DNA of 40,890 bases from Campylobacterales bacterium (GCA_029932985.1 JAOZPA010000004.1:1-40890), one strand, 5' to 3'; counted from the stretch's first letter, positions 2,630 through 33,373 are shown. Program-made: numbers and translations. Notes: generated by a model not told the origin, from the sequence alone.

Positions 2630-3391
2630 ATGCTCATAAATTTTAAAAAATTTAGTTCTATAAAAATTGGGAATGAAGTAGAGGTTGAAGTGATTGATAA
2701 GATAAAAAAAAGTGAAAAATTTATCATAGGCAAGGCAAATAATCTTCTAATTTCCAATAATCCTCCGCCATTGGCGATTTTATCAAAAAAATTTAATTAC
2801 ATAAAGATAGAGGATTCAAAACTTCATATCGGGGCGATGACCCCAAACGGAAAAGTGGTATCTTTTGCCAAAAAACATAATTTAGCTAACTTAGAGTTTT
2901 TATCTCATTTACCAGGGTCAATTGGTGGGGCAATTAAGATGAATGCAGGGCTAAAGGAGTATGAGATTTTTAATAATCTTTGGGGGATTAAGACAGAAGA
3001 TGGGATTATAAAAAAAGAGGATATAGATTTTGGTTACCGATATAGTAAAATTGATGGCATAATTTTTGAGGGAATTTTTGAGATGAAAGAGGGTTTTAGC
3101 TATGAAAGATTGGAGTTACTAAAATCTATGAGAAAAAATCAACCTAAACTGCCAAGTGCTGGAAGTTGCTTTAAAAATCCAAAAGGAGATTTTGCAGGTC
3201 GATTAATCGAGGCAGTTGGCTATAAGGGTAAAAAAATTGGCGGTGTGGGCTTTAGTGAAGTTCACGCAAACTTTTTAGTAAATCACGGTGAGGGGACTTT
3301 TGATGATGCTGTAAAAATAATAGATGAGGTAAAGGCAAAAGTTTATGAAAAATTTGAGATAGAGTTGGAAGAGGAGATAATTATAATTTGA
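2630..3391 (+). CDS. murB: UDP-N-acetylenolpyruvoylglucosamine reductase
   Basis: PGSIGGAIKMNAG, FGYRYS, QPKLPSAGSCFKNP, HANFLVN. Confidence 0.95.
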   Translation: MLINFKKFSSIKIGNEVEVEVIDKIKKSEKFIIGKANNLLISNNPPPLAILSKKFNYIKIEDSKLHIGAMTPNGKVVSFAKKHNLANLEFLSHLPGSIGGAIKMNAGLKEYEIFNNLWGIKTEDGIIKKEDIDFGYRYSKIDGIIFEGIFEMKEGFSYERLELLKSMRKNQPKLPSAGSCFKNPKGDFAGRLIEAVGYKGKKIGGVGFSEVHANFLVNHGEGTFDDAVKIIDEVKAKVYEKFEIELEEEIIII

Positions 3392-3400
3392 GGAAAAGAG

Positions 3401-3742: not shown

Positions 3743-3758
3743 TATATCCCCCTCCCCT

Positions 3759-3803
3759 CTCTCATTGCCTTTCCTCTCATTGCCTTTCCTCTCATTGCCT
3801 TTC
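3759..3803. repeat. tandem repeat, 3 x CTCTCATTGCCTTTC
   Basis: Three perfect head-to-tail 15-bp copies at 3759, 3774 and 3789. Confidence 0.95.
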
Positions 3804-3955
3804 TTCCCCCAAATAATCGGGTGCTTTTGCCAAATAATAACCCATTTTAGCATTTTGAATTCTAAAATTTTTTTTAAAAAAAAGTTACAATATGATTCAG
3901 TAAAATTTTCTTAATTTTTTTATTAATTAATTTAATAAAGTTTTTTTATTTTTTA

Positions 3956-3964
3956 TGGTACACT
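3956..3964 (+). promoter_or_regulatory. probable extended -10 promoter of the atp/tol operon
   Basis: TGGTACACT preceded by T-rich tracts, 38 bp upstream of the atpF' start. Confidence 0.45.
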
Positions 3965-4425: not shown

Positions 4426-4434
4426 AGGGTCAAT

Positions 4435-10965: not shown

Positions 10966-12060
10966 ATGAATAGCGGTAATAAATTTTTTATAGTAGGTGG
11001 AATAGTATCTATATTTGGATATATATTAATTCTCATCAGCGTCTATTTTATAATACTAGAAAAAGATAATATTACCAAAAACTATGTGAGCAAAAAAGAT
11101 AAATTTTTAGAGGTTACTATTAACTCCTCACCCACTAGAACAAAATCAAGAAATACTCCAAAATATATAGATAAACCAAAAAAGCCACCGAAGAAAATTT
11201 TAAAAACTCCTACATTAAATAATAATGATGGTAAACGAATAAAAAAAGTATCTAAACTATGTGCCGATAAATGCCCCCGAATTGATGGTTCTTGTAAAAG
11301 AGTTTGTGAAAAAGGTGAATATTGGAGTAAAAAATATTGTAAATGTAGAATGACAAAAAAAGAGAGACTTAGAATAAAAAAATTAAAATTAGCTGAAAAG
11401 AGAAAAGCTGAAAAGAAAATATTAAAAGATAAAAAAAGAGAAGAGGATAGGCTAAAAAAGATAAAATTACAAAAAGATAGAGAGAAAGACAGAAAAAAAC
11501 TAGAGGCTGATAAATTAAAAAAACAGCAAGAGAAGAAAGAACAAGTTCAAAAAGATAAAAAGAAACTACAAGAGAAAAAAGAGTTAGAGGAAAAAAAGCA
11601 AAAAGAGAAAGTAGAGCAACAGAAAAAAAGAATGGAGATGCTTTATAAACAGATGGAAAAGGATGATGCTCAAGAGAGTAAAAATAGTAAATCTCCATCA
11701 AAAGGAAGTGCTAGTGAAATTCTTGATAGCAACAAAATAGAGACAGGTGAAGGTTTGGGGGAAGAGGGGATTGAGGATGCATTTAAGGGTGGTATTGATG
11801 AACATCTTCAAACAAAATTTCAAAATGAAACAGCTTTTATTCAAGCAGGGATTAAGGCTTCTGTGAAGTTGACTATATATAAAAGTGGAAAATTTAAATA
11901 TAGTATCTCAAGATATACTAGAAATTCACAATTTGATGCAAAGGTAAATCACTTTTTTAAATCTTTAACTAGAGGTGATTTTAAAAAGTTCATGGGTGAT
12001 TTTCCAGAGAAAAAGAATGGAAAATTTGTATTTAATGTTGAACTTTCTGATGAGGATTAA
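10966..12060 (+). CDS. tolA: TolA-like protein (N-terminal TM, K/E-rich coiled coil, TonB/TolA-type C-terminal domain) with Cys-rich insert
   Basis: Position between tolR and tolB; single TM, long charged helix, C-terminal alpha/beta domain. Confidence 0.75.
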   Translation: MNSGNKFFIVGGIVSIFGYILILISVYFIILEKDNITKNYVSKKDKFLEVTINSSPTRTKSRNTPKYIDKPKKPPKKILKTPTLNNNDGKRIKKVSKLCADKCPRIDGSCKRVCEKGEYWSKKYCKCRMTKKERLRIKKLKLAEKRKAEKKILKDKKREEDRLKKIKLQKDREKDRKKLEADKLKKQQEKKEQVQKDKKKLQEKKELEEKKQKEKVEQQKKRMEMLYKQMEKDDAQESKNSKSPSKGSASEILDSNKIETGEGLGEEGIEDAFKGGIDEHLQTKFQNETAFIQAGIKASVKLTIYKSGKFKYSISRYTRNSQFDAKVNHFFKSLTRGDFKKFMGDFPEKKNGKFVFNVELSDED

Positions 12061-12085: not shown

Positions 12086-13357
12086 ATGAAAATAGTTTTA
12101 GGTATGATTTTGTTTGTGGCACATCTTTTTGCAGTGGATGCTACAATTGAAATTTCAAAAAAGAAAGATAAGATTTACAAAGTTATGGTTGAGGATTCAA
12201 CCACAAAAGAGATAGGTGCAAGTTTAAGCAAGAAATTCTTTAAGCTTTTGCTCGGTGACTTAAAAGTTAGTTCAAATTTTGAGGTTATCGAAGACCACTT
12301 CAAAAAAAGTTTTGATGCAACCTATATTACAGAGGATGTTCTAGCAAAAAATGCAGAATTGATACTACGATACAAACTCGAATTTAGCGACAATAAAGCA
12401 TTAACTGCAAAAGTTCGATTATACAGTGTGCGGTCTAACTCCATTATGGTAGAGAAAAGTTACAATATGTCAAACACAAAAATGTATCCATTTCTATCGC
12501 ACAAAATTATCTCCGATTTGAACAAAGAGATGGGTTCAGGAAGTATCGATTGGATGAATAGATATGTGATTTTTTCCAAATATACTTCATCGGGAAATAG
12601 CTCCATCTACCTTTCAGATTATACTTTAACCTATCAAAAACGGGTAGTAAGCAAGGGATTAAATCTATTTCCAAAGTGGGGAGACGAAGAGCAACGAACC
12701 ATCTATTACACAAAAATCCAAAACGACACACCTACACTTTATAGATACAATCTATACTCAGGCAAAAAACAGTTAATCACTCAATCTGAGGGGATGTTGG
12801 TTTGCTCAGATGTCAGCGAAGATGGCTCAAAACTGGTACTCACTATGTCCCCTAACGGCTTACCAGATATTTATGTTTATGACTTAAATACAAAACAAAA
12901 ACAACGAATTACCAAATTTTCAGGAATTGATGTTGGAGGGCAATTTGTAGAAGGTACTAGTAAAGTTGTCTATGTTTCCGACAAACTAGGCTACCCAAAT
13001 ATTTATCTTGCTAATACACAAAGTGGAGATTCACAAAGATTAGTTTATCACGGCAAAAACAATAGTTCTTGTACGGCAAACGGAGATTACATCGTTTATT
13101 CGAGTAGAGAATTTAAAAAAGATAGTGATGGTAGTTCAATATTTAACCTATATCTGATTTCAACTTCAAGTGACTTTATCAGACAATTAACATCTTATGG
13201 TAAAAATATGTTTCCTAAATTTGCAAAAGGAAGTGATGCTGTACTTTTTATAAAAAGCTATAAAAATCAAAGTTCATTAGGCTTAATTAGGTTAAATGCA
13301 AATATCAGTTTCGACTTCCCCTTAAAAGTAGGTAAAATACAGTCAATAGATTGGTAA
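12086..13357 (+). CDS. tolB: Tol-Pal system beta-propeller protein TolB
   Basis: AVDATIEI N-terminus, PD40-like repeats (FPKW, SDVSEDGSKL), ends IQSIDW. Confidence 0.93.
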   Translation: MKIVLGMILFVAHLFAVDATIEISKKKDKIYKVMVEDSTTKEIGASLSKKFFKLLLGDLKVSSNFEVIEDHFKKSFDATYITEDVLAKNAELILRYKLEFSDNKALTAKVRLYSVRSNSIMVEKSYNMSNTKMYPFLSHKIISDLNKEMGSGSIDWMNRYVIFSKYTSSGNSSIYLSDYTLTYQKRVVSKGLNLFPKWGDEEQRTIYYTKIQNDTPTLYRYNLYSGKKQLITQSEGMLVCSDVSEDGSKLVLTMSPNGLPDIYVYDLNTKQKQRITKFSGIDVGGQFVEGTSKVVYVSDKLGYPNIYLANTQSGDSQRLVYHGKNNSSCTANGDYIVYSSREFKKDSDGSSIFNLYLISTSSDFIRQLTSYGKNMFPKFAKGSDAVLFIKSYKNQSSLGLIRLNANISFDFPLKVGKIQSIDW

Positions 13358-13382
13358 GTTTAAGTTATTTTAGAAATTTTTT

Positions 13383-13391
13383 TGATAAAAT
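13383..13391 (+). promoter_or_regulatory. probable internal extended -10 promoter for pal
   Basis: TGATAAAAT 27 bp upstream of the pal start. Confidence 0.45.
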
Positions 13392-13418
13392 AAACACAAT
13401 TTTTTAGAAGGATAGAAT

Positions 13419-13958
13419 ATGAAGAAGATTACAATTATTTCATTTGTTGCATTAGCAATGTTATTAACCACAGGTTGTAGCAAAAAACAAGAGGTAAAAC
13501 CAGTAGAGCCTGTTTTAGAAAAACAGATAGAAGTTCCCGTAGAGATTGTAGATAATAGTGCTGCTAATGACATCGCAGATGATGCGGATAGTTCAGTATT
13601 ATCATTTGAGCAACTACAAGAGTTGGTAAAAACAGTTTATTTTGATAGTGATAAATATATTATTAAAGAAAATATGGAAACTGTAATTAGCTCAAATGCA
13701 GATGCCCTAAACAAAAAAGAGGCAAAAACTGTTTCAGTTGTGGTAAGTGGTCATTGTGATGAGTGGGGTACAGATGAGTACAACTTCGCACTAGGTCAAA
13801 AAAGAGCAATCGCAGTTAAAAATGCTTTAGAGAGTAGAGGAATCGCAGGTGAAAATATCAAAACTGTAAGTAAAGGTGAAGGTGCACCTGTTTGTGGTGA
13901 AAGCACTCCAGAGTGTTGGTCACAAAATAGAAGAGCCGAGATTCAACTGAATCAATAA
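13419..13958 (+). CDS. pal: peptidoglycan-associated lipoprotein Pal
   Basis: Lipobox TTGC; OmpA-like domain GHCDEWGTDEYNFALGQKRA ... QNRRAE. Confidence 0.95.
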   Translation: MKKITIISFVALAMLLTTGCSKKQEVKPVEPVLEKQIEVPVEIVDNSAANDIADDADSSVLSFEQLQELVKTVYFDSDKYIIKENMETVISSNADALNKKEAKTVSVVVSGHCDEWGTDEYNFALGQKRAIAVKNALESRGIAGENIKTVSKGEGAPVCGESTPECWSQNRRAEIQLNQ

Positions 13959-13961
13959 TCC

Positions 13962-13986
13962 TTGAGGTGCGATTTTTCGCACCAAA
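13962..13986 (+). repeat. single REP-like palindrome, family 2 (GGTGCG-ATTTTT-CGCACC-AAA)
   Basis: Same stem as the 9505 element, directly after the pal stop. Confidence 0.7.
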
Positions 13987-14045
13987 TAAAACATCGGTGA
14001 GGGGTCATAAACCCCAAATTAATTAATAATTTCAATAGGAAATAT

Positions 14046-14636
14046 ATGAGAATATTGCTTTTAATTCCACTTTTGCCATTTATGTTATATGCTTCTGAAC
14101 CATCTGCATTTAGTGCTGGTGATTTGGATTCTAAAAATCCGTATGGTTTAACTGAAAGTGAAAAAAAAATCTATGACAATAAAGCAAAGGTGCGGAAACT
14201 TACCAATAAATTTGGTAGTGTAGATGCAAGAATCCAAAATAGTCTAACTTCCATCGAGGGAATGAGAGATGAAGTGGAGCGAAATAGTGTGAAAACTAAT
14301 TCAATAGAGCGGAAACTGAGTAAAATAGAAAATATTTTGGGAATTGGCAAACCATCTCTAAATGATTCTAATAGCTCAAATCAAAGTGTGATAAAGGTAG
14401 CAAATGAGGTAGCGACTCTCGATAGTAGCAAAAAATTCTCGATAGCCCAGCGACTTGATAAGATTGAAGAGTATATCAAAAAGTCAAGAACTCTACAAAA
14501 ACAAAACTACACCAAAATTAATTCATCTCTAAATAAGATAGCTAGATTGACCGATTCTAAACTTTCAAAACGGCAAGTGAAAAAAATCGTTCGAGCTGAA
14601 ATTAAAAAATATTTAGATACTATGTTTAAAAAGTAA
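14046..14636 (+). CDS. CpoB/YbgF-like periplasmic coiled-coil protein lacking the C-terminal TPR region
   Basis: Signal peptide, then SEPSAFSAGDLDSKNPYGLTESEK as in the Campylobacterota pal-downstream gene (Cj0114-like); only 196 aa. Confidence 0.7.
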   Translation: MRILLLIPLLPFMLYASEPSAFSAGDLDSKNPYGLTESEKKIYDNKAKVRKLTNKFGSVDARIQNSLTSIEGMRDEVERNSVKTNSIERKLSKIENILGIGKPSLNDSNSSNQSVIKVANEVATLDSSKKFSIAQRLDKIEEYIKKSRTLQKQNYTKINSSLNKIARLTDSKLSKRQVKKIVRAEIKKYLDTMFKK

Positions 14637-14658
14637 AAATTTACCACGAAACATAAAA

Positions 14659-14685
14659 AGTCATAAGTTTTAATAATTTATGACT
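14659..14685 (+). terminator. possible terminator hairpin
   Basis: AGTCATAA...TTATGACT inverted repeat after the cpoB-like stop; no clear U-tract. Confidence 0.35.
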
Positions 14686-14776
14686 ACCCCTTCAGATGGA
14701 ATTAAATTAAAAAGAGCAAATTAACCTTTTACTAATCACGATTGAGATAAAATTAGAGAAAATTAAAAGGACTAAT

Positions 14777-16516
14777 TTGCAGTATAGTTTTAAGTCAATC
14801 TTCAATGAAGTAAAAAAATTTAAAAAAGAGTTGATAGTTGCAAATATTGTAGCGATTATTGCAGTGATTATCAGCACACCCATTCCCCTACTCATTCCAC
14901 TTTTGGTTGATGAAATTTTGCTAGACAAACCAAACATTATTTTAGGCACAATCGACATTTTTTTTGATAAAAGCGAACCCTATTTTTATGTTTTTATCGT
15001 GCTTATCGTGGTTTTGGTCGGTCGAGCTTTGTTTTTTACTCTAAATGTTTTGCAACTCAAACTTTTCACCATAATCTCCAAAAATATCACATTTAAAATC
15101 AGAAAAGATTTATTAACTCATCTAGGATTAACTTCACTCTCCGAGCTTGAAAGTATTGGAAACGGCAAAATCAGCTCCATTTTAGTTATCGACATAAATA
15201 CAATTGACGAATTTCTAAGCTCCGTAATTAGCAAATTAATCATCTCTATTCTCACCATCATTGGGGTAGCAATTGTACTTTTATCAATCCATTGGCAATT
15301 AGGACTTTTTATATTTTTGATAAATCCATTTGTTATAATCTTGACCACAAAAATCGCACGAAAAGTTGGAATGCTAAAAAAGATTGAAAATTCAAAGATT
15401 GCACTTTTTCAAGAAGCCCTAAGCGAAACTATGGAGATTTTTTGGCAAATAAGAGCCAGTAATCAAGATAAAAAAATGCTTTCCAAAATTACCGAAAAAG
15501 CTAAAGATATAAAAGATGCCTCCATCGCATTTGGCTACAAAAGTGAAGCTGCTGCCAAACTTTCAGCCCTCACATTCATCTCTGGATTTGAGGTTTTTCG
15601 AGCTACCTCTATTTTGGCGGTTGCCTATTCCGATTTGTCAATCGGTTTAATGTTGGCAATCTTTGGATATTTATGGGTAATTATGACCCCTTTTCAAGAT
15701 ATTTTTGCAATCCAATACACCTATGCAAATGCAAAATCTGCACTAGCAAGAGTAAATGAGCTTTTTGCTTTGGAAAATGAACCAAAATACAATACTCATA
15801 AAAATCCTTTTGCAAAAAGTGTTACAAATGAGATTGAACTTAAAAATGTAGATTTTTCATATCACGACCACAAAACTATCCTCAAAAACATTTCACTCAA
15901 AATCCCAAAAGGCAAAAAAGTAGCGATTGTGGGGGCGAGTGGAAGCGGAAAAACAACTCTTGCTCATATAATTGTGGGATTTTACCCCATAAGCCGTGGC
16001 GAAATTTTGTATGACAATATCGATATAAAAGAGATAGGTTTAGATGTAGTGCGAGAAAATATCTATCTAGTTTTGCAAAATCCACAGCTCATCAACACCA
16101 CCATCGAGGACAATTTGACTTTTGGGCGAGATTGCACACCTCAGCAGATAAAAGATGCTATCACTTTAGCTCAACTTGATAGTTTCATTAATGATTTAAA
16201 AGATGGAATCAAAACCAAAGTGGGTAAAAATGGTATCAAACTTTCAGGAGGACAGCGACAAAGACTCTCAATCGCCCGAATGATTTTGCAAAATCCACGA
16301 GTCGTAATTTTGGATGAATCCACCTCAGCTTTGGATATGCACACCGAAAAATCACTCTTTGAAGCACTACAAAACTTCCTAAAAGACAAAACCACAATCA
16401 TCATCGCCCACCGATTAGAAACCATCAAAAACAGCGATTACATCTATGTGCTAAACAACGGCACGGTCGAGGAGGAGGGAACTTTTGAACAAATCAGTTT
16501 CAAAGAGTTAAATTAA
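14777..16516 (+). CDS. ABC exporter, fused permease/ATPase (MsbA-like fold)
   Basis: N-terminal TM domain, Walker A GASGSGKT, LSGGQRQR, ILDESTSALD, IAHRL. Confidence 0.92.
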   Translation: MQYSFKSIFNEVKKFKKELIVANIVAIIAVIISTPIPLLIPLLVDEILLDKPNIILGTIDIFFDKSEPYFYVFIVLIVVLVGRALFFTLNVLQLKLFTIISKNITFKIRKDLLTHLGLTSLSELESIGNGKISSILVIDINTIDEFLSSVISKLIISILTIIGVAIVLLSIHWQLGLFIFLINPFVIILTTKIARKVGMLKKIENSKIALFQEALSETMEIFWQIRASNQDKKMLSKITEKAKDIKDASIAFGYKSEAAAKLSALTFISGFEVFRATSILAVAYSDLSIGLMLAIFGYLWVIMTPFQDIFAIQYTYANAKSALARVNELFALENEPKYNTHKNPFAKSVTNEIELKNVDFSYHDHKTILKNISLKIPKGKKVAIVGASGSGKTTLAHIIVGFYPISRGEILYDNIDIKEIGLDVVRENIYLVLQNPQLINTTIEDNLTFGRDCTPQQIKDAITLAQLDSFINDLKDGIKTKVGKNGIKLSGGQRQRLSIARMILQNPRVVILDESTSALDMHTEKSLFEALQNFLKDKTTIIIAHRLETIKNSDYIYVLNNGTVEEEGTFEQISFKELN

Positions 16517-18226
16517 TTCTATCTTCACATCTTGAAAAACTGCGGAGTCGCCCTCTTCGCTGACTCTGTTTGGGGTTAAGTAGTTTCCGCCACTTGCCCC
16601 TGCATAAATTAAGATGCAATCTTTTCGTAATCTCTCATCAAATTTTAGCTCAAACTCATAAGAGCCGTAATCACTTTTGGCTAAAACTTTTTGCCCCTCT
16701 TGAAAATTTTCATCTGGCTTTATGTATAGACAATTATCTATCTCAAATTGAGAATTTAACGATTTTTTAGACTTAGAAGTTAGCAAATAGTACCCCTCAC
16801 CGCTTAGTGCTTCATCTTCAAACTCATCGATAAAAATGAAATTATCAAAAGTATCTTTTTGGGTTTTATAATTTTGATAAGTTTTTGCCTTTAAAACTCC
16901 ATCTTCCCCATAACTATTTGACTCCACAATTTCACGAATATACTCTTTTTCACTTTTAAGTTTTTCATATCCAAACTTCCCTATCAAAAATTCAGTCAAA
17001 TCATACTCACTTATCCCAAACTTTGGTTCATTAATTTTGGGCATTAGAGATAAATATTCGTGTCCATAACTAATTTTAATATCCTCTTTTTCCAAAAAAC
17101 TACAAGCAGGAATCACTAAATCAGCCATCTTAGAGGTTTCATTTTCATAAAGTCCAAAATAGATTACAAATTTAGCTTTTTTTATCCCATCTTTTATTAT
17201 TTCCGTTTGGGGATTTGAAACCATTGGATTTGCACCTTGAATAAACACCAAATCATACTTACCAAAATTTACCGACGGCTTAGGCTCTTGACCCCTCACC
17301 GTGAAATGATTTTTGAAGCCAAAACCACTATCTCCCAGATAATGAACACCACTACCCTCTTTATCGAAAAGTCCCAACATCGCCACAAAAGATTCAATGG
17401 CTCTTAACACGAAATGCCCTATCTCATATTTTTGCACACCAACACCGATAAGAAATGAAACCTTTTTACCTTTAATAATCTCCAAAAATTTATCAATTTC
17501 AAGTAGGTCGATGTCGTGTTGTTTTGCTAAATAATTTAATCTAAATGAGTCGATAAAATCCAAAAACCATCTAAAATCTTCTGTATGATTTTTAATAAAG
17601 TTTTCATCCTCCATCTCATCCATTATTGCAAATCGGCAAAGTAGAATTGCCAAATAAATATCGGTTCGGGGTTTTAATTGCAAAAATAGTTTCGCCTTTT
17701 GGGCAATTTTAGTTTTGACGGGGTCTATAACAATTAGAGTTTTATCTTTGATGATATTATAAATATGGGAGTTTGTATCACTAACATTTCGCCCCCAAAC
17801 CACCACAACTTCACTTTTTTTTATCTCACTAATAGGCATATTTATAACTGATTCTCTGCCTTGAATAACTCCAACCTCACCAGCTCCCTCACACAAAGTT
17901 CCTTTGGTGAAAGTTGAGCCATAGGGGTTAAAAAATTTAGTAGTAACTCCCTGCATCTTGCCAAGATTCCCACTTCCACGATAATAGAGAGATTTTTTGC
18001 CCTCAAACTCCTTTAACTTCTCAAACAAAATTTCCGTTGCTTTATCTAAAGCCACCTCTTTTTGATTATACAAAGCCTTTTGGAATCTAGGAAATTTATC
18101 ATAACTATTCAAAATAGGGCAAAGGTAACCATTTGTAACAGGATGAGCAACCGCCCCTGTTAATTTACCATCTATCACCTCAATTTCGCAACTATCATAA
18201 CAATCAAGCGGACAAGCTGTTTTCAT
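16508..18226 (-). CDS. molybdopterin-dependent oxidoreductase family protein
   Basis: N-terminal CPLDCYDSC...GYLC Fe-S motif, VVVWGRN, VIDP, ADLVIPA; substrate unknown. Confidence 0.85.
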   Translation of the reverse strand: MKTACPLDCYDSCEIEVIDGKLTGAVAHPVTNGYLCPILNSYDKFPRFQKALYNQKEVALDKATEILFEKLKEFEGKKSLYYRGSGNLGKMQGVTTKFFNPYGSTFTKGTLCEGAGEVGVIQGRESVINMPISEIKKSEVVVVWGRNVSDTNSHIYNIIKDKTLIVIDPVKTKIAQKAKLFLQLKPRTDIYLAILLCRFAIMDEMEDENFIKNHTEDFRWFLDFIDSFRLNYLAKQHDIDLLEIDKFLEIIKGKKVSFLIGVGVQKYEIGHFVLRAIESFVAMLGLFDKEGSGVHYLGDSGFGFKNHFTVRGQEPKPSVNFGKYDLVFIQGANPMVSNPQTEIIKDGIKKAKFVIYFGLYENETSKMADLVIPACSFLEKEDIKISYGHEYLSLMPKINEPKFGISEYDLTEFLIGKFGYEKLKSEKEYIREIVESNSYGEDGVLKAKTYQNYKTQKDTFDNFIFIDEFEDEALSGEGYYLLTSKSKKSLNSQFEIDNCLYIKPDENFQEGQKVLAKSDYGSYEFELKFDERLRKDCILIYAGASGGNYLTPNRVSEEGDSAVFQDVKIELI

Positions 18227-18245
18227 TTATACCCTTTTTTACAAT

Positions 18246-19118: not shown

Positions 19119-20008
19119 ATTAAATATTTTCCTGCCTCTTCTAAAATTTTCTCTTTTGGTAAAACTTGTACATTTTTAAATTGAGTCCTATTAAAAGTCG
19201 TCTGCCTTTTTGCAAGTTGAGCAGTATGAATCGAGATAAGCTCTATCAACTTCTCCTTTGAAATTTTTTCATCCAAATAATCCAAACTCTCCTTAATCCC
19301 AATAGAGTTCATCGCATTTGGATTAGTTCCATATTTCTCCCTCAAATACTCCACCTCCTCAATCAGCCCCGCCTCCACCATTTTAGAAGTTCTAGCTTTA
19401 ATTCTCTCTCGCAAAATCTCTCTATCCACCTCAATCTGATAAATCTCAATCTCTTTTATAATTGGCTCTTGTCGATTTGCCTCAAAATAATCTGTCACAT
19501 TTTTTCCACTCTCTAAATATATCTCAAACCACTTCTCAATTCGATAAATATCATTTTTAGAAATTTTTTTACTATAAATCTCATCAACCTCACAAATTTT
19601 ACCATAAGCTTTCTCTTTATCCTCCAAAATCTCCTTAACTCTAGTTTTCGTCTCCGCAGAAATTTTTGGCTTTTCACTAATCCCATAAACCATCGATTTC
19701 AAATAAAAACTCGTCCCACCCACAATTATTAAATTTTTCTCATTCGCCACCGCATAATCTCTCGCCTCAAAATAAAGCTCAAAAAACCTCTTCACATCAA
19801 ACGGTGAGGGGACTGAAATCTCATCAATCCCAAAATGCTTTATCCCCTCTCGCTCCCTCACAGTTGGTTTTGCCGATGCAATATCTATCTCTTTATAAAT
19901 ACTAAGCGAATCTAGCGACAGAATTACACAATTACTAGTTTTTGCCAACTCAATACTTAATTTACTCTTCCCTGAAGCTGTCGCCCCCAAAATCGCTATC
20001 TCTTTCAC
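19115..20008 (-). CDS. miaA: tRNA dimethylallyltransferase
   Basis: GATASGKS, DSLSIYKEIDIASAKP, VGGTSFY, LAKRQTTF. Start moved to GTG 20008 after an AGGAGGAG RBS. Confidence 0.95.
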   Translation of the reverse strand: MKEIAILGATASGKSKLSIELAKTSNCVILSLDSLSIYKEIDIASAKPTVREREGIKHFGIDEISVPSPFDVKRFFELYFEARDYAVANEKNLIIVGGTSFYLKSMVYGISEKPKISAETKTRVKEILEDKEKAYGKICEVDEIYSKKISKNDIYRIEKWFEIYLESGKNVTDYFEANRQEPIIKEIEIYQIEVDREILRERIKARTSKMVEAGLIEEVEYLREKYGTNPNAMNSIGIKESLDYLDEKISKEKLIELISIHTAQLAKRQTTFNRTQFKNVQVLPKEKILEEAGKYLI

Positions 20009-20056
20009 ATTCTCCTCCTTTGTATATTTTGTCTCAAGTCCCCTCACCAATGTGTT

Positions 20057-20668
20057 TTATTTAGAAGCTTTTTTCATATAATTATTTAACATTTTATCAT
20101 CTTGATTTTCAATAATTGTATTTGATTTTTTTATCAGAATTAAATCTTTATCATCTTTAATTTTTATCTCTTTATCTTTTAAAATTTTTGGTTTTTTTTT
20201 ATCATAAAAATAGAAACAGATAATTCCAATAGATAAGATAAATGCTATCCATAAAAAATAGTTTAACCCCTTTTGCTTTTTTAAAACATTTCTCGGTGAG
20301 GGGGCTGGAGTAATTTTATTTGTCGAAATTTTAACTCTAATCTCAAACCTATTTTCACTTTTTGAAATATCTACATAACTATTTTTTTTTCTAAAAAGCA
20401 CTAAAATAAGAGAGTTATTTTTTTGATAAATTTTATATCTTGAGAGAAGTTTAGACTTTAGTTTTCTATTAATTTTTTTGAAATAGAGATTTTTAAAAAT
20501 AATTTTAGTTATATTTTTAAAACTTTTTTTTGAAATTTTGCCATTGTATGGTTTGTCACAAAGCAAAACTAAATCTGTGGAATTATCGTAAAAAAATATT
20601 TTATGCTCAAGAAGAGTCGAAGCAAATAGAAGCTGGGTAGATAAAATTAAAAATAGAATTTTCCTCAT
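20057..20668 (-). CDS. divergent Campylobacterota FliO-like membrane protein
   Basis: Directly downstream of fliN; signal peptide, DLVLLCDKPYNGKI periplasmic motif, single TM, C-terminal NYMKKASK. Recalled similarity to Cj0352/HP0583. Confidence 0.55.
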   Translation of the reverse strand: MRKILFLILSTQLLFASTLLEHKIFFYDNSTDLVLLCDKPYNGKISKKSFKNITKIIFKNLYFKKINRKLKSKLLSRYKIYQKNNSLILVLFRKKNSYVDISKSENRFEIRVKISTNKITPAPSPRNVLKKQKGLNYFLWIAFILSIGIICFYFYDKKKPKILKDKEIKIKDDKDLILIKKSNTIIENQDDKMLNNYMKKASK

Positions 20669-20916
20669 TACATATCTCTACTCTTTAATTTTTCTATTTT
20701 AATTGCGAATTTTGAATCTTTGATGATAATTTCCCCCTCACCGATGTTTTGATTATTGACTAAAATAGCCGATTTTTCACCTATCTTTTTATTTAATTTT
20801 ATAACTTTTCCAACTTCAAAACTATAAATCTCCTCTAGCAAAATCTCTCTTTTGGCAAATATCACACTTATATCTACCTCAATCTCCAGAATTTTTTTTA
20901 GTAACTTTTTTTGCAT
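20668..20916 (-). CDS. fliN: FliM/FliN (SpoA) family flagellar switch protein
   Basis: SpoA pattern GKVIKLNK...ILVNNQNIGEGEIII...FAIKI; ATG overlaps the mlaE TGA. Confidence 0.75.
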   Translation of the reverse strand: MQKKLLKKILEIEVDISVIFAKREILLEEIYSFEVGKVIKLNKKIGEKSAILVNNQNIGEGEIIIKDSKFAIKIEKLKSRDM

Positions 20917-21716
20917 CACCAATCCAAAAATAGAAATAGAGATGATAAAAAATAGTTGGCTGTAAATATCGTGACCGCTGCCATTACTACCGCTTGAGTC
21001 GTTGCAATCCCCACTCCTCTAGCCCCGCCTTTGGTGAAATATCCTACATAAGTACCGATTGAGCTTATCAAAAATCCGAAAACAAAAGCTTTGATAATTC
21101 CCACTCCAATATCGCTAAAACTTAAAAATGTGGAGATGGTATTTTTGTAGGCATTTGGATTTATCCCCAAAACTTCCGTGGAGATGAAATATGCACTCAC
21201 ATTTCCCAATAGGTCAAAACAGATAACTAATATGGGTAGTGAAATAGTAGATGCGATGATTCGGGGGATTATCAAATATTTTCGTGAATCCACCGCCAAA
21301 GTATCGATTGCATCAATCTGCTCCGTAACCCTCATCGTGCCAAGTTCCGCCGCCATCGAACTAATCGCCCGACTTGTAAGCATCAAAGCCCCAAACACAG
21401 GACCTAACTCTTTTGAGATAGAGATAAAAACTGTATAGCCGATAAACTCCTCCGCCCCGAAATCCTTGAACCCTTGATAGAGTTGAAGCGACATCACCAG
21501 CCCCGTAAAAACCGCTGTGAGCATAATAACCATAAATGAATCCGCTCCAATTCTTTCAATCTGCTTAAAAGTTTCCTTGCCCCTAAGCGGAGTTGTAAAA
21601 TAGAGTGGAATCAATTTAAGATTAAATATCAAAAAATGCCCAAAGTCCCCCAGCCGATTTATCAAAGTGAGAATGGGTTTGCCAAAAAAAGAGAAAAAAT
21701 GGTCAATAGCTCTCAT
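20916..21716 (-). CDS. mlaE: MlaE-family ABC permease
   Basis: KELGPV, AAELGTMRVTEQIDA, GGARGVGIATT. Confidence 0.9.
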   Translation of the reverse strand: MRAIDHFFSFFGKPILTLINRLGDFGHFLIFNLKLIPLYFTTPLRGKETFKQIERIGADSFMVIMLTAVFTGLVMSLQLYQGFKDFGAEEFIGYTVFISISKELGPVFGALMLTSRAISSMAAELGTMRVTEQIDAIDTLAVDSRKYLIIPRIIASTISLPILVICFDLLGNVSAYFISTEVLGINPNAYKNTISTFLSFSDIGVGIIKAFVFGFLISSIGTYVGYFTKGGARGVGIATTQAVVMAAVTIFTANYFLSSLFLFLDW

Positions 21717-23678: not shown

Positions 23679-24590
23679 ATGAAATTATCTGAAATTGTGA
23701 AAAGTTTAAAGATAGATTTTGAGGGTGAAGATGTTGAGATAGACTCTATGAATACAATTTTTGAGGCTGGTGAGGGGGAGCTTAGTTTTGTGGAGAGTGA
23801 AAAGTTTAAAGATTTACTTTTAAATACAAAAGCTTCTGCGGTTCTAGTTTCAGAGGATTTAGCCCGATTTGTGCCAAAAAATTCTATCGCGTTAGTGTGC
23901 CGTAATCCTCGACTAGCGATGGCAAAGGCAACTAAATTTTTTCAGCAGAAAGGTTTTTCATCGATTGCTAGTAGTGCATATTTGGGGCGAAATTTGCAGA
24001 TTGGCAGAAATTTAACAGTTTATCCAAATGTCTATATTGGAGATAATGTGGTGATTGGTGAAAATGTGACAATTTATCCAAATGTGACGATTTATGATAA
24101 TACGGTGATTGGTAAAAATTGTACGATTCATGCGGGAAGTGTGATTGGGAGTGATGGTTTTGGATATGTGCCAAGCGGTGAGGGGCATATAAAAATTTAT
24201 CATTTAGGAAATGTGGTGATAGAGGAGGATGTGGAGATTGGGGCAAATTGTGCAATCGACCGAGGGGTTTTTGGCTCGACACTCATCAAGCGAGGGACGA
24301 AAATTGATAATCTCGTGCATATCGCTCATAATTGTGAAATTGGTGAAGATTGTTTTATTGCAGGGCAAGTGGGGTTAGCAGGTTCTACTATCATCGGGCG
24401 AGGGGTTGCCATGGGTGGGCAGAGTGCGAGTGCTGGGCATTTAGAAATTGGGGATTTTGCACAAATTGCAGGAAAATGTGGAGTTATAAGCTCACTCAAA
24501 GGTAAAAAAACTTATAGTGGTTTTCCTGCTTTAATCCACCGAGATTGGCTAAAACTGCAGGTAAAATTAAGAAAATTTTTGAAAGGATGA
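23679..24590 (+). CDS. lpxD: UDP-3-O-acylglucosamine N-acyltransferase
   Basis: Hexapeptide repeats, IGSDGFGY, IDRG, KIDNLVHIAHN. Confidence 0.95.
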   Translation: MKLSEIVKSLKIDFEGEDVEIDSMNTIFEAGEGELSFVESEKFKDLLLNTKASAVLVSEDLARFVPKNSIALVCRNPRLAMAKATKFFQQKGFSSIASSAYLGRNLQIGRNLTVYPNVYIGDNVVIGENVTIYPNVTIYDNTVIGKNCTIHAGSVIGSDGFGYVPSGEGHIKIYHLGNVVIEEDVEIGANCAIDRGVFGSTLIKRGTKIDNLVHIAHNCEIGEDCFIAGQVGLAGSTIIGRGVAMGGQSASAGHLEIGDFAQIAGKCGVISSLKGKKTYSGFPALIHRDWLKLQVKLRKFLKG

Positions 24591-25803: not shown

Positions 25804-26967
25804 TCAAATCGTTTTTACTTTTTTGCTCATCATTAAAACTAATCCTACTGCGATGGCATTTGATAGCAAAGAACTTCCGCCATAGCTCAAAAACGGCACG
25901 GCGATTCCCTTGATAGGGGTGATTTGCACAATACCAAACCCATTTATTATAAATGAGATGCCCAAGATTAATCCGATGCCAACACCAAAGAGATAATTTA
26001 TCCTATCTTCACTTCGACTAGCAATTCTGAAAATTCGGTAGAGGATAAAAAAATAGATGACTACCACGATAAATAAACCGATAAAACCTAACTCCTCAGC
26101 AATTCCTGTGAGTACAAAATCGGTGTGAACATCGCTTAGGAATCCTAATTTGAAAGTCCCCTCACCGACACCTTGACCAAAGAATCCTCCATAGTTTATC
26201 GCATTTAGGGAGTTTGTGACTTGAAATGAATCGGGTAAGTGTTTGATTTTTAGGCTAGATGAGATGGACTCAGGAAAAATTGCTAAAAATATATCTTGTA
26301 CACTTGACCACCACATCACCACTCTTAGAATTCTGTGGTCTGAGGTGAAGATGAAAACCAGTACCACAAATAGTACAATTAATATGGAGTAGGTGAAAAA
26401 TCGCAAACTCATTCCTGCTAAAAGTGCCATAGTTAGAAGTGTAACTCCAAGGACGATGACTTGCCCAATGTCGTTTTGGAAAATTGCGATGAGATACACC
26501 ACAACCCCAAAAGCAATGATATATCGGGTGAAACTTCTAAACTCCTCTTTGATTGGTTTTTCGCTACTATCAAGCCGTCTCTCAAAACTCCAAGCCAAAA
26601 AAAATACAAATCCCACTTTAAAAAACTCTACGGGGGCGATGGAGAAGTGGCTAAACTGAATCCATCTTTTTGCCCCACCAACTGCATAAACTAAACTCTC
26701 AGGCAAAAATTTCATAATAATCATTGCAAACAATGAGACGATAAATAGAGATGCCCCTATGATTTTGAGCCATTTTTTGCTATCAAGATAGGAGAGTGAA
26801 AACATCAAGAGGATTGCCACAAATCCCACAATCGCTTGTTTGATAAAAAAACTAAATTCATAAATTGAATAATACCGCACAACATAAGTAGTAAGTGAGA
26901 ATGAGAATAATATACTAATCCCAATCAAAGTTGAGGTTAAAATAAATAAAGTTTTGTCAGTTTTCAT
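25804..26967 (-). CDS. ftsW: cell division SEDS protein FtsW
   Basis: GGAKRWI, APVEFFK, QNDIGQ, VHTDFVL, PIKGIAVPFLSYGGSS; second SEDS paralog. Confidence 0.9.
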   Translation of the reverse strand: MKTDKTLFILTSTLIGISILFSFSLTTYVVRYYSIYEFSFFIKQAIVGFVAILLMFSLSYLDSKKWLKIIGASLFIVSLFAMIIMKFLPESLVYAVGGAKRWIQFSHFSIAPVEFFKVGFVFFLAWSFERRLDSSEKPIKEEFRSFTRYIIAFGVVVYLIAIFQNDIGQVIVLGVTLLTMALLAGMSLRFFTYSILIVLFVVLVFIFTSDHRILRVVMWWSSVQDIFLAIFPESISSSLKIKHLPDSFQVTNSLNAINYGGFFGQGVGEGTFKLGFLSDVHTDFVLTGIAEELGFIGLFIVVVIYFFILYRIFRIASRSEDRINYLFGVGIGLILGISFIINGFGIVQITPIKGIAVPFLSYGGSSLLSNAIAVGLVLMMSKKVKTI

Positions 26968-27474: not shown

Positions 27475-27600
27475 AAAACATCCTTTAATTTTATCTTTTG
27501 GAATAATAGCTAAAAATAATTGATTATTCGATTAATTTCTATAAAAAGGAAAATTCGGTGAGGAGACTAGAGAATAGGGAGGCAAGTAAGAAAGTAGATT

Positions 27601-29804: not shown

Positions 29805-32453
29805 TTATAATCTTTCTATTAATTCAGAAAATTCAATTAAGTTTTGCTCTATTCCCTCAACATCGTAGGATTTAATATTTTCTATTAAAGTTTTTGTATA
29901 ATCTAAGACATCTTGGTTTTGAAACTCTTTACCAATCTCATAGACATTTCTTGCAAATACTTTACACTCTTTGAAATTTAGGATTTCCAGATTGTTTTTG
30001 TATTCATTTGAATTTTTAAGCTCCTCTAACTTCCAAATCAAATCTAAGTTATTGTATGTAACTTCTGAGATAGCTTCTCGTTTTGCTTTATCAATAGTGA
30101 GTTTAGTCTCTTTCAATCTCTCATTATTTTTAACACGATTTAAATTAATTGGGCAAATAATTTTTAGATGTGTACCCTCATTTATCTCACTTTGAATCTC
30201 TATATGATAATTTAATAGTTTAGTCAATTTTTTTACTATTGCAAAACCGATACCGAGAAAATCAACTACATCTTGAGGGGCATCATTTTTAAATGCATCT
30301 TGAATTCTTGCTAGATTTGTAGGGCTAATTCCCACTCCACTATCGCTAATTAAGATTATTAACTCATCATCATTGGAGGTTACTTCAATTTTAATAAAAC
30401 CTTTTTCGGTATATTTAATTGAATTATTAACCGCATTTATGATAATCTGTCGCAATCTTGTCTGGTCACTTTCGATAAATCTAGGAATATCATCACTTAT
30501 CTCTATTGAAAACTTAAGGTTTTTTTCAGTAATTTTCTGGATAAAAATATCTCTAATTTTGACGAAAAAATACTCTAAATCAATTGAAGTGTGGTAGAGT
30601 TTAATTTTTTTATGCTCTAGCAAACTTATATCAATAATATCATTGATAATTAGCAAAAGATTATCTCCACTCGCTTTTATTGACTCTAAATATTTCCTTT
30701 GAGTTTTTGTCAAATCATCATTTTCAAGCAGTTGAGCAAAACCTTTAATAGCATTTAATGGTGTCTTTAAATCATGAGAAATATTATTTATAAACTCATT
30801 TTTAATCTCTTTATTTCTCTTTAAAAAGTTTATATTATCATTAATTTTCTTCTTAAAAGAGATGTCAACAATCGCCAAAACCACTAAATCTGGATTTTTA
30901 TCAGTAATAGATGAACCTGTAATATGGCAATAAATATCTTTACCCTCGCTATTAATTAAAGTTTGTTCAATATCAAGCATTGAGCCTTGTTTAATTTTAT
31001 CTTCAATCTCATCTCGAAGACGACTAAAATCTTTTTTATTTAAATAGAGATTTTGCATCTCTTGCCCAACGATATTACTCTCTTTAAAATTAAAAAGTTT
31101 ACAAAATCCAGGATTTACCTCTATAATTCTCAAATTTTCATCTAAAAATAGAAAAGCAATCTTATTATTGGAAAAAATCATCTGTTTTTTCTGTGTTATA
31201 TCATCTAACACACCTCGGTTTTCTTGAAGTTGCTGTTGATAGTTGAAATTAATCTTATCCTTTTTTTCAATCTCTCCCTCTTTAACCGTCAACTCTTTTT
31301 TATGAATAGACATAATTTTTTTAACAAGCTGAATGAGAGTAAAAGAGATAGCTCCAATTGCTAAAAGTATTAGAAAACCAATAAACATCGATTCTTTCAA
31401 TCTTTTATCATATTTCTCACCAATCTCTAACTTTTTCTGCTCAATCTCCTGCTTGACTTTATCCACATCCACTCCAGCACTAATTAGCCATTGCCAATCA
31501 CTATAAAGGAAAAAGTAGGCGATATTATCTTTTTTTTGCCCATTTTGATAGGATTTAAAAACAATCCCTCTATTTAAAATATCTCGATTTATCTCATCTT
31601 GATATTGTCTTTTGAGATATGCAATCTCTTCACCACCCTTTATAGGTGCCATCAAAAGGTCTAAATTATCATACTCATCAATTTTAAAAATAGTGATTCT
31701 CTTATCTTTATCACTAATCCCCTTGACTTTCAACATTTCAATTGCACTATTTTTGATGTTTTTATCAAGATTATTTACATTTTTTGCATAACCCACAATC
31801 CAATTAAAAGGTTCAAAATAACTAGTAAAAGCCATCTTTTTAATTTTTAGAATAGAATCTTTATAAGTTTTCAAAGTTGTAAAATCAACATACCCCTTCT
31901 CCTCTATCTGAATCTTATTGTAAAAAGCCTCCACATATTTATATCCATTAGAATCAATATCTTCCGCACAATTCATCCCCTCTTTGAGAGTATTTGTGGG
32001 TAGAAGTTTCGCTACAATATTATTTCTAGCTTTAATCTCATATATAAATATCTCATTATGTTTATCACTATTACTCAATGTTTTTAAGATAGCAATAATC
32101 TCCCGTTTAATCTCTTTATCACTTTTTTCTGAAGACCTATTATACATCGCCGCGGCTAATTTAATCGCAGTTGTTGTATTAAATTGTAAATTATCTTTGA
32201 CTTTTTGTTTAGCTAAAAGTTTTTGATAATTGATTTGATTTACAACATCATGAACTTCACTTCTGATAGATTTTTTCTCCTTCTCTATCATCGTTTCTAA
32301 AATTTGTTCATTTTCTTTGTTGAACTCTTCCAGTGATTCTTGAAGCGATAAATTATAGTAGGCGATAACACCCATTATAAAAATTGCAAACACAATATTT
32401 AATGTAATTATATTTCTCGATAAATATTTCCCTCTCTCTGCTGTTGCCATCAT
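29805..32453 (-). CDS. sensor histidine kinase (TM-Cache-TM-PAS-HisKA-HATPase plus helical tail)
   Basis: Cache motifs (FIYE, YFEPFNWIVG, WQWLISAG), PAS (IIEVNPGFCKLF), H-box SHDLKTPLN, G1 DSGVGI. Confidence 0.88.
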   Translation of the reverse strand: MMATAERGKYLSRNIITLNIVFAIFIMGVIAYYNLSLQESLEEFNKENEQILETMIEKEKKSIRSEVHDVVNQINYQKLLAKQKVKDNLQFNTTTAIKLAAAMYNRSSEKSDKEIKREIIAILKTLSNSDKHNEIFIYEIKARNNIVAKLLPTNTLKEGMNCAEDIDSNGYKYVEAFYNKIQIEEKGYVDFTTLKTYKDSILKIKKMAFTSYFEPFNWIVGYAKNVNNLDKNIKNSAIEMLKVKGISDKDKRITIFKIDEYDNLDLLMAPIKGGEEIAYLKRQYQDEINRDILNRGIVFKSYQNGQKKDNIAYFFLYSDWQWLISAGVDVDKVKQEIEQKKLEIGEKYDKRLKESMFIGFLILLAIGAISFTLIQLVKKIMSIHKKELTVKEGEIEKKDKINFNYQQQLQENRGVLDDITQKKQMIFSNNKIAFLFLDENLRIIEVNPGFCKLFNFKESNIVGQEMQNLYLNKKDFSRLRDEIEDKIKQGSMLDIEQTLINSEGKDIYCHITGSSITDKNPDLVVLAIVDISFKKKINDNINFLKRNKEIKNEFINNISHDLKTPLNAIKGFAQLLENDDLTKTQRKYLESIKASGDNLLLIINDIIDISLLEHKKIKLYHTSIDLEYFFVKIRDIFIQKITEKNLKFSIEISDDIPRFIESDQTRLRQIIINAVNNSIKYTEKGFIKIEVTSNDDELIILISDSGVGISPTNLARIQDAFKNDAPQDVVDFLGIGFAIVKKLTKLLNYHIEIQSEINEGTHLKIICPINLNRVKNNERLKETKLTIDKAKREAISEVTYNNLDLIWKLEELKNSNEYKNNLEILNFKECKVFARNVYEIGKEFQNQDVLDYTKTLIENIKSYDVEGIEQNLIEFSELIERL

Positions 32454-33373
32454 AACACCTCCACTCTATTTCGACCATTTCTTTTCGCTTCATACATCCC
32501 CTCATCTGCTCTTAAAATCAATGTATCTTGTGTATCATTTTCCCTAAAAGCAGTTACCCCAAAACTACAAGTTATATTTTTATCTAACCCCTTAAATTCC
32601 CTCTCGGAAACTTTTAACCTTAATTTATTAGCAATCTCTTTCGCCCCATTTAAATCTGTTTTTGGCAAATAAAGAATAAACTCCTCTCCCCCCCATCTCG
32701 CAAATACATCTGAAATCCGAATCTCCCTTTTTACAACTTTTGCAATATCTACAAGCACAATATCCCCAACCTTATGCCCATAAGTATCATTAACTTTTTT
32801 AAAATGGTCAACATCAAAAAAGATAATAGACAACGGCTCTTTATACCTTTTCGTCTCGTTGATTTTCTCCTCTAAAAGCATATCAAACTTTAATCTATTA
32901 TAGATTTTTGTAAGTGAATCGGTACTTGCCAAAATTTTTTCCCGTCTTAATGCCTCTTTTAACTCACCAGTCCTTCTTTGTAGAGTCAGATGAGTATTTA
33001 CCCTCGCCATCAATTCAATCCCATTAAACGGCTTAGTGATATAATCCACCCCGCCAACGTGAAACCCAGTTCTAATACTCTCAGTGTCATCACGAGCAGT
33101 TATAAAAATTATAGGAATATCTTTAAAATAACTATTTTTTTTAATCTGCATACAGGTCTCAAATCCATCCATTATGGGCATCATAATATCCAATAATACC
33201 ATATCAAATTTCATCGCTTTAAGTGCTTTAATCGCCCCCTCACCACTATTCACAGCTGAGACATCAAATTTATTTGTCTCAAGAAGCGAAGCTAAAATTT
33301 GAATATTCAACTTATTATCATCTACAACTAAAATCTTAGAACCTCTATTATTATCTATATGCTCAAAACTCAT
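32450..33373 (-). CDS. response-regulator diguanylate cyclase (REC-GGEEF)
   Basis: REC (ILVVDD, LLDIMMP, IFITA, YITKP), TDSLT, RxxD I-site (RISD), intact RWGGEEF. Confidence 0.93.
   Translation of the reverse strand: MSFEHIDNNRGSKILVVDDNKLNIQILASLLETNKFDVSAVNSGEGAIKALKAMKFDMVLLDIMMPIMDGFETCMQIKKNSYFKDIPIIFITARDDTESIRTGFHVGGVDYITKPFNGIELMARVNTHLTLQRRTGELKEALRREKILASTDSLTKIYNRLKFDMLLEEKINETKRYKEPLSIIFFDVDHFKKVNDTYGHKVGDIVLVDIAKVVKREIRISDVFARWGGEEFILYLPKTDLNGAKEIANKLRLKVSEREFKGLDKNITCSFGVTAFRENDTQDTLILRADEGMYEAKRNGRNRVEVL

Follow-up and report, generated by a model that had tools for sequence, protein, structure and literature searches.

Contig C144 of a Campylobacterales draft genome (GCA_029932985.1, JAOZPA010000004.1:1-40890) raises the question of why one G-rich word, GGTGAGGGG, should be so frequent on both strands of DNA whose G+C content is 26-38% in bins of 2 kb. 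This stretch of 40,890 nucleotides, referred to below as the window, is an entire contig of a 2,432,563-base assembly in 210 contigs. An earlier note on it had counted 12 exact copies, six on each strand, had put the chance expectation far below one copy, and had proposed a DNA-uptake sequence or a motif like the cyanobacterial highly iterated palindrome (HIP). Every coordinate was reproduced, and in 100 shuffled versions of the window with dinucleotides kept, GGTGAGGGG appeared 0.11 times on average and at most twice. Moreover, 324 further copies lie outside the window, so the density does not fall to background beyond it, although the window itself carries about twice the genome mean (12 copies vs 5.65 expected; Poisson P=0.013). 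The results given below describe a dispersed, strand-symmetric motif, which we tentatively read as a DNA-uptake-type self-recognition signal that may have been spread by transformation-linked molecular drive.

Across the genome (31.4% G+C), GGTGAGGGG was found 336 times (182 on the plus and 154 on the minus strand), whereas Markov models of orders 1 to 5 predicted 3.0 to 61.8 copies; the over-representation is thus a property of the genome and not of the window alone. With the preceding C included, the 10-mer CGGTGAGGGG occurred 283 times against 3.8 expected under an order-4 Markov model, which is the highest z-score among all 10-mers of the genome, and CGGTGAGGGGAC, with 116 copies, was its commonest 12-mer, above every A/T-rich word. 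Control words with the letters reversed occurred 0 and 3 times. For open reading frames (ORFs), a crude call was made that kept the longest frames without overlap, with 70 codons as the minimum; it returned 2260 ORFs and assigned 88.6% of the DNA to coding sequence, so that all genic and intergenic counts in this work carry some error. Synonymous codons were then shuffled 30 times inside each of 2234 usable ORFs, with the proteins and the codon usage of each gene kept. The shuffles yielded 8.0 ± 2.6 sense copies (maximum 14) and 1.7 ± 1.2 antisense copies (maximum 5), vs 118 and 97 observed; hence the enrichment survives a model preserving amino acids and codon usage, under which the earlier note had thought that it might vanish. 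In addition, 82 of the 173 Gly-Glu-Gly (G-E-G) tripeptides are spelled by exactly GGTGAGGGG, a share that codon usage predicts to be about 3.4%.

The copies conform approximately to the consensus Y-A-K-C-GGTGAGGGG-A-Y-T, with a weaker tail reaching position +17. A pyrimidine is preferred at −4, A at −3, G or T at −2 and C at −1, followed by A at +9, C or T at +10 and T at +11; even among genic copies, C stands at +17 in 41%, against a background of about 16%. The motif is about 16-22 nt long with a 10-nt core. The word, whose reverse complement is CCCCTCACC, is non-palindromic, and its flanks are asymmetric as well. Within genes, sense copies are read as G-E-G (83) or V-R-G (37), and antisense copies as P-L-T (50), P-S-P (40) or P-P-H (8), so that the distribution by frame covers all five stop-free registers and leaves the register that creates TGA empty (0 copies). 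Because the flank preferences hold in all four main registers taken one by one, the signal acts on DNA and codon constraint cannot explain it.

The variation around the core is itself structured. When positions 2, 5 and 6 of the 10-mer were varied, the resulting degenerate family C[CG]GT[GT]NGGGG comprised 595 copies in all, with peaks at GGA (283) and CTT (100) and with 8 to 29 copies of most other combinations. Neither A or T at position 2 nor A or C at position 5 was enriched, and the fixed recognition positions are C1, S2, G3, T4, K5 and G7-10. Variants of the main word at one position were enriched 5- to 70-fold, plain transitions being the commonest, led by G to A at position 3 (39 copies) and C to T at position 1 (30 copies). 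This pattern resembles a recognition code in which some positions are fixed and others free, surrounded by decaying or nascent copies that form a cloud. Next in over-representation come words with a common GGGGAC tail, namely a second family, (AAATTT)CCGTTTGGGG, whose word CGTTTGGGG occurs 177 times vs 5.7 expected and is 55% intergenic, and a further related word, C[CG]GTGCGGGG. A composite element of motif A (GGTGAGGGG) and motif B (CGTTTGGGG) was considered and rejected, since the two form merely five inverted pairs. The ideal downstream tail forms the palindrome GGGGACTT/AAGTCCCC, and in a subset of copies the GGGG can pair with a downstream CCCC.

To trace the origin of the copies, their flanks were compared with each other by all-against-all blastn with the core masked. 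Similar flanks were found in just 55 copies, leaving 298 independent contexts among the 336; because the flanks are mostly unrelated, the word itself must be the repeated unit. The position of several window copies in their proteins was then compared with orthologs from the same order, where the earlier note had suggested looking for absence of the encoded tripeptides, and these were indeed mostly missing. In MurB (copy at 3287), G-E-G was present in 0 of 13 orthologs, which read G-x-[GA]-[ST]; in MiaA (copy at 19803), P-S-P was present in 0 of 13, the consensus being P-[ND]-E-[HYK]; and in FtsW (copy at 26158), G-E-G was present in 2 of 13, the others reading G-x-G with variable x. The LpxD copy at 23769 falls in a variable segment of the alignment with 12 relatives. 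At the second LpxD copy (24177), E-G is common in the relatives, the first G is lineage-specific, and a one-residue gap adjoins. That gap is the only change in length, the proteins of ftsW, miaA and murB being constant in this respect. The alignments thus show that the copies arose via substitution at variable protein positions, and because protein length is otherwise constant, insertion of a miniature mobile element is excluded.

Eighteen intergenic copies have common flanks because they adjoin members of a multi-copy gene family. This is a family of paralogs of about 246-250 amino acids, with 59 tblastn matches (C153:1665-3203, C172:805-3143, C131, C57, C41 and others), many of them full-length at 45-77% identity and often in tandem arrays. 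Within 5-10 nt past their stop codons there is usually a word of the motif family, namely ATAGC-GGTGAGGGG, ATTTCCGTTTGGGGACTT or decayed forms. The paralogs had no match in Pfam or NCBIfam, with a weak lead in the Atlas to HSDR_N/PD-(D/E)XK-like nucleases. Directly ahead of the tandem paralogs, C153:2-1615 encodes a protein with a caspase domain (Peptidase_C14) as well as a PIN-domain toxin that is preceded by a small ORF.

The copies are spread along the genome in a Poisson-like manner, with a mean of 1.53 and a variance of 1.49 copies in 137 bins of 10 kb. Over the genome, the core occurs once every 7.2 kb and the degenerate family once every 4 kb. Replichores in this draft of 210 contigs were judged by local GC skew alone. 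Plus-strand copies fell 80 times in positive and 102 times in negative skew, and minus-strand copies 74 and 80 times, while adjacent copies had the same orientation in 90 cases and the opposite in 105. Orientation was therefore independent of local skew, and it was independent of local gene direction too; the check by replichore and strand that the earlier note had proposed reveals no polarity. With respect to genes, 118 of the 336 copies (35%) are intergenic vs 11.4% non-coding DNA, and the other 218 are genic, 98 of them antisense. Of the 118 intergenic copies, as many as 82 are no more than 60 nt away from the 3' end of a gene. In convergent spacers, which make up 10.6% of the intergenic length, the share is 35 of 108 copies (threefold enriched); in divergent spacers, with 25.7% of that length, it is 9 of 108 (threefold depleted). 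A gene-end bias within genes was discarded, as relative position was flat there apart from a slight deficit in the first and last tenth. The motif forms one inverted-repeat pair with itself, and four pairs of copies are closer than 100 nt. Two further candidates were set aside: a repeat that breaks the assembly, with 13 copies within 200 nt of contig ends vs 11.6 expected; and a tRNA-derived element, for although the GGGGACTTGAACCC reverse complement resembles a T-arm, none of the 336 copies comes within 30 nt of any of the 22 tRNA genes predicted by ARAGORN.

The host belongs to the Campylobacterota, judging from its nearest protein clusters and from matches to NCBIfam models of Helicobacter and Campylobacter type (Fur, Pgp6), and it is the sole member of its family and genus in the genome collection. 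Within the order, the motif is confined to this lineage as far as the survey reached: the 10-mer CGGTGAGGGG had at most 12 copies in each of 40 genomes, and the 12-mer CGGTGAGGGGAC had 0-2 copies in each of 400 genomes from 25 other families, vs 116 here. A search for a close relative in metagenomes found none, the best LpxD identity being 47-53%, and the motif occurred once in those 80 loci. In a 16-mer scan of the genomes of 185,579 species with the host's own records excluded, the matches listed were single ones per record in diverse groups, with no obvious second host among them.

De novo word analysis of 100-200 kb from each of ten genomes of the same order showed that two relatives carry hyper-abundant words of their own. 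The first, G014, a two-contig assembly from another family, has YTGCGTGAGS, i.e., Y-TGCGTGAG-S; across that genome it is found 257 times forward and 259 times in reverse, vs 4 and 2 copies of the control with reversed letters. This word is non-polar (46 neighbours in the same and 46 in the opposite orientation, with both strands used within regions of uniform skew), is almost wholly genic (5% intergenic), and has GTGAG in common with the GGTGAGGGG-type motif. Among 31 species sampled in the genus g15, six further species (G406, G409, G416, G066 and G424 among them) carry YTGCGTGAGS at 278-519 copies, one (G414) has an intermediate count of 40, and 24 others do not exceed background, which is a clade-level "dialect" pattern. 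In the second relative, G022, which belongs to yet another family, the 10-bp palindrome TTACATGTAA occupies 59 sites per 100 kb vs about 1.5 expected, and 34% of its sites are intergenic; this palindrome contains CATG and, from its sequence, can be regarded as HIP-like. No comparable hyper-abundant word was found in the other eight genomes sampled. In one of them, G009, the 14-nt word CCACCCTCAGAAAC occurred 10 times, mostly at one locus and on one strand; it probably represents an array or some longer repeat of that locus instead of a dispersed motif. Words that are hyper-abundant, strand-symmetric and lineage-specific hence recur in this order, but sporadically and in heterogeneous forms.

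The largest motif-free stretch of the genome is a whole contig, C6 (C6:1-29789; 29.8 kb; 34% G+C), which is a Mu-like transposable prophage encoding a repressor, Ant, MuA- and MuB-type proteins, terminase, portal, head and tape-measure proteins. The core motif is found there 0 times vs 4.1 expected (P=0.016), and the degenerate family once vs 7.3 (P=0.006). However, the next three motif-free stretches (22, 19 and 18 kb; C34, C201 and C208) consist of ordinary core genes, including those for LysS, GlyA, IF-2, LpxC, Mdh, a type II secretion cluster, MurG, ribosomal proteins, RpoA and RNase J. The equation of motif-free stretches with accessory DNA therefore holds for C6 alone, and the contrast between core and accessory DNA drawn in the earlier note stands for the prophage and fails for these three. 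As to uptake-type genes, the genome encodes ComEC, two DprA proteins, a small ComEA-like HHH_3 protein, a secretin next to GspE and GspC, one PilB-like ATPase and two PilT-like ATPases. These are the parts that a Campylobacter-type uptake machine needs, and their presence is permissive, making uptake possible only.

In the window, the motif resides in ordinary conserved genes, and the details that the earlier note had reported were largely borne out: a pyrimidine precedes all 12 copies (C in nine, T in three), ACT follows four of them (3287, 19803, 20040 and 26158), and seven of the 12 read G-E-G in frame. On the plus strand, these seven include 3287..3295 in murB (2630-3391; codons 220-222), as well as 23769..23777 and 24177..24185 in lpxD (23679-24590; codons 31-33 and 167-169). 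On the minus strand, they include 16793..16801 in a molybdopterin-oxidoreductase gene (16508-18226; codons 476-478), 20734..20742 in fliN (20668-20922; codons 61-63), 26158..26166 in ftsW (25804-26967; codons 268-270) and 33236..33244 in a response-regulator/GGDEF gene (32450-33373; codons 44-46). The second copy in the molybdopterin-oxidoreductase gene, 17292..17300 on the minus strand, is a sense copy in the third-position register and reads T-V-R-G at codon 309, out of frame as claimed. Two plus-strand copies are antisense to minus-strand genes: 19803..19811 in miaA (19115-20050) reads V-P-S-P, and is intergenic under ATG-first starts yet inside the ORF of miaA that begins at TTG, and 20295..20303 reads A-P-S-P in an ORF of 203 amino acids (20057-20668). 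Both P-S-P readings stand; the name "fliO-like" given to the latter ORF could not be confirmed, since it has no family match in Pfam or NCBIfam. The two copies described as intergenic are 13996..14004 on the plus strand, which lies 37 nt past the stop of an OmpA-family gene (13419-13958, plus strand), 41 nt ahead of the next ORF (14046-14636, plus strand) and behind a GGTGCGA..TCGCACC hairpin, and 20040..20048 on the minus strand, which lies at the extreme 5' edge of the TTG-initiated miaA ORF, 8 nt past the stop of the upstream ORF, and is effectively intergenic. Ten one-mismatch copies were also found, giving 22 sites at up to one mismatch vs 1.98 expected; they include the two GGTGAGGAG variants at 11124..11132 (minus strand) and 27557..27565 (plus strand), where the earlier note had placed them.

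Two other features of the window were observed. The stretch 35427-40890 holds six consecutive plus-strand ORFs without NCBIfam matches, at 26-29% G+C, and may be an accessory block. It is true that no motif copy lies after 35.4 kb, as the earlier note had remarked, but so short a stretch gives this absence no significance. At about 14000-16500, GC skew flips from positive (2-14 kb) to negative (16-36 kb), where gene direction turns from plus to minus; this flip may be merely transcription-linked.

Which process could write the same word hundreds of times? We place uptake-linked drive first because the combination of features matches that of published uptake-enhancing sequences (bioRxiv 10.1101/2025.10.24.684340; PMC2346458), and we hold it with less than even confidence. 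The excess near 3' ends and in spacers, for instance, is likewise described for the DNA uptake-enhancing sequences (DUES) in the former source. Under such drive, point substitution would write the motif wherever sequence tolerates it, i.e., in variable protein loops in any stop-free frame on either strand and in short spacers just past genes. The competence machinery would bind and take up motif-bearing DNA preferentially, and homologous recombination of the imported DNA would slowly enrich the recipient genome for the motif. The outcome would be a "self" tag, and recently acquired DNA lacking it would stand apart. The same process keeps up the DNA uptake sequence (DUS) in Neisseriaceae and the uptake signal sequence (USS) in Pasteurellaceae. 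The sequences show that the word is abundant, even and strand-symmetric, that it arose by substitution, that it is specific to the lineage and absent from one prophage, and that uptake genes are present; a bias of uptake by the motif and its upkeep by drive instead of selection are what we infer. The abundance, the codon-preserving null, the lack of polarity, the ortholog contrast and the absence from the prophage all agree with the interpretation in the earlier note (an uptake or HIP-like sequence) and support it in part; strictly, a non-palindromic word is not HIP-like.

Several points weigh against an uptake signal. Copy density is under that of classical DUS and USS; the self inverted pairs typical of intergenic DUS and USS are nearly lacking (one pair); and two or three peaks coexist (GGA 283, CTT 100 and the GC variants), which a single receptor would not obviously yield. 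The flanks common to 18 intergenic copies stem from the adjoining multi-copy gene family, and the tail that completes the GGGGACTT/AAGTCCCC palindrome hints at a hairpin element. The 22-, 19- and 18-kb core stretches are free of the motif, and the spacing agrees with a Poisson process, which gives no support to an enrichment in core DNA. Finally, ComEC, DprA and type II/IV machinery are also widespread in non-transformable bacteria, and the collections contain no close relative in which clade-wide sharing of the motif could be seen.

The most serious competitor, though we consider it unlikely, is that the motif is hyper-abundant in the manner of a HIP through a bias of repair, methylation or gene conversion, or through a chromosomal role, independent of uptake. 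HIP1 (GCGATCGC) is an 8-bp palindrome of cyanobacteria that is hyper-abundant and even, occurs in genes and spacers and imprints peptides, and the cause of its enrichment is debated. Such a bias would equally predict the abundance, evenness, strand symmetry, substitution origin and absence from young mobile DNA that were found here, and the motifs of the relatives are of quite different kinds (YTGCGTGAGS, 5% intergenic; the palindrome TTACATGTAA), so uptake need not be their common cause. On the other hand, the word is non-palindromic and, at 10-16 nt, exceeds the usual sites of methyltransferases, and its commonest variants are plain transitions, which very-short-patch-type repair would deplete. 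No candidate enzyme came to light, though no search aimed at one was made. The remark in the earlier note that the word contains the restriction-modification-type sites GGTGA and GAGG found no support, over-representation being the opposite of restriction avoidance.

Less probable still is a binding site of an abundant DNA-binding protein, for example one that organises the nucleoid, or a terminator or RNA-stability element of gene 3' ends that drifts into genes. The placement of intergenic copies close to 3' ends (82 of 118 within 60 nt), with convergent spacers enriched and divergent ones depleted, suits this explanation, and the degenerate pattern with fixed positions resembles a protein-DNA code. 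The GGGG..CCCC hairpin of the tail, present in a subset, also points that way, about 25 intergenic copies folding at −11 kcal/mol or better, and certain intergenic copies are terminator-like. However, 65% of the copies are genic, and 98 of the 218 genic ones are antisense, where an RNA element cannot act. A hairpin as the defining feature was rejected, because mean folding energy was equal for intergenic and genic copies (−7.2 for both) and barely better than with shuffled tails (−5.8). An Rfam scan of the window gave no match at the gathering score, no consensus terminator was found at motif copies in the scanned stretch 13300-21000, and the T-run follows some copies only.

We regard as very improbable a miniature element of the repetitive extragenic palindromic (REP) or miniature inverted-repeat transposable element (MITE) kind, spread by a REP-associated tyrosine transposase (RAYT) or IS200-type tyrosine transposase. 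The genome does have two Y1_Tnp (PF01797) matches, on C19 and C182, some intergenic copies are imperfect palindromes, and the five composite pairs with the second motif family are inverted. Yet the genic majority (65%), the substitution without length change and the 298 of 336 unrelated flanks speak against transposition, no close inverted copies flank the Y1_Tnp genes on both sides, one of these genes being seemingly truncated, and there are no clusters or arrays, with four pairs closer than 100 nt. The two Y1_Tnp fragments (IS200/RAYT-like) lie at C182:240-2640 and C19:19955-22285; one adjoins a reverse-transcriptase ORF, and the other is between, or fused to, inverted SapC-like paralogs, each bearing a motif-encoded G-E-G.

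A polar chromosome signal, either Chi for AddAB/RecBCD or a guide for FtsK of the type of the FtsK-orienting polar sequences (KOPS) or SRS, is scarcely credible. It is suggested by the G-rich composition, the length of 8-10 nt and the hundreds of copies, and GGTGAGGG differs at one position from the E. coli KOPS consensus, GGGNAGGG. Strong polarity, however, is refuted by the orientation of neighbours (90 same vs 105 opposite, where an 80% polar motif would give about 68% same) and by the skew test, and copies interleave on both strands in the window. That the motif is no special feature at all, but a side-effect of composition, codon usage or common Gly-Glu-Gly, has next to no chance, for in spite of the G-E-G encoded by seven of the 12 window copies, it was rejected by the Markov models (3 to 62 expected vs 336), the codon shuffle (8.0 and 1.7 vs 118 and 97), the 118 intergenic copies and the reversed word, found only 0 and 3 times.

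Returning to the uptake signal, the preprint cited above (bioRxiv 10.1101/2025.10.24.684340) describes uptake-enhancing sequences in only two families of Pseudomonadota, and our literature search found no report joining DNA uptake sequences with Campylobacterota, apart from which it yielded the known DUS and USS literature. It is possible, but rather doubtful, that sequence-specific uptake tags exist beyond Neisseriaceae and Pasteurellaceae, and that the core CGGTGAGGGG here, YTGCGTGAGS in a clade of seven species and TTACATGTAA in another family are independently evolved signals. If uptake were confirmed, the present motif would be the first such tag outside the Neisseria and Haemophilus families, and a third unrelated case, in Campylobacterota, would show that uptake tags evolve repeatedly, which bears on two open issues: the origin of such tags, and whether self-recognition during transformation is generally solved in this way. 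The relatives with parallel motifs, G014 and G022, are assembled into one or two contigs and would be testable at the bench if isolates exist. Whatever its function, the motif marks native vs recently acquired DNA, the prophage contig having none, and it could aid the binning of contigs of this lineage from metagenomes.

Compared with known systems, the motif is like HIP1 in being hyper-abundant, evenly spread, genic as well as intergenic, and peptide-imprinting, but it is no palindrome, and the truly HIP-like palindrome is TTACATGTAA of the relative G022. Chi and KOPS/SRS are likewise G-rich 8-mers in hundreds of copies; unlike the motif here, they are strongly co-oriented with replication. 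For the letters of the motif, the literature search returned only unrelated primers and the TMECO intrastrand-triplex repeats of E. coli, which contain GGGTGAGGGG and so have the letters GGTGAGGGG in common with our motif (PMC4666352). As set out in that paper, TMECO is an extragenic composite of 34-37 nt, CCCTC..GGGAGAGGG..GGGTGAGGG, and no such companions surround the copies found here. Within the same phylum, Campylobacter jejuni is reported to take up only DNA with methylated RAATTY (PMC10046745). This is a sequence-dependent filter of self and non-self at uptake, as may be the role of our motif by analogy; RAATTY, a methylation site of 6 bp, owes its frequency to composition, whereas the motif here is a rare word of 10-16 nt that is over-represented. 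From DUS and USS the motif differs in its occurrence in Campylobacterota, its unrelated sequence, a density about 5-7 times lower, the single self inverted pair and the two or three coexisting peaks, and it is known here from sequence alone. With the same DUS and USS, as described in the cited sources, it shares an asymmetric core of 9-10 nt with weaker flanks, hundreds of copies equally on both strands, within and between genes, an excess at 3' ends between genes, the avoidance of stop registers, specificity to one lineage as far as the survey reached, and, in the case of one prophage, absence from recently acquired DNA.

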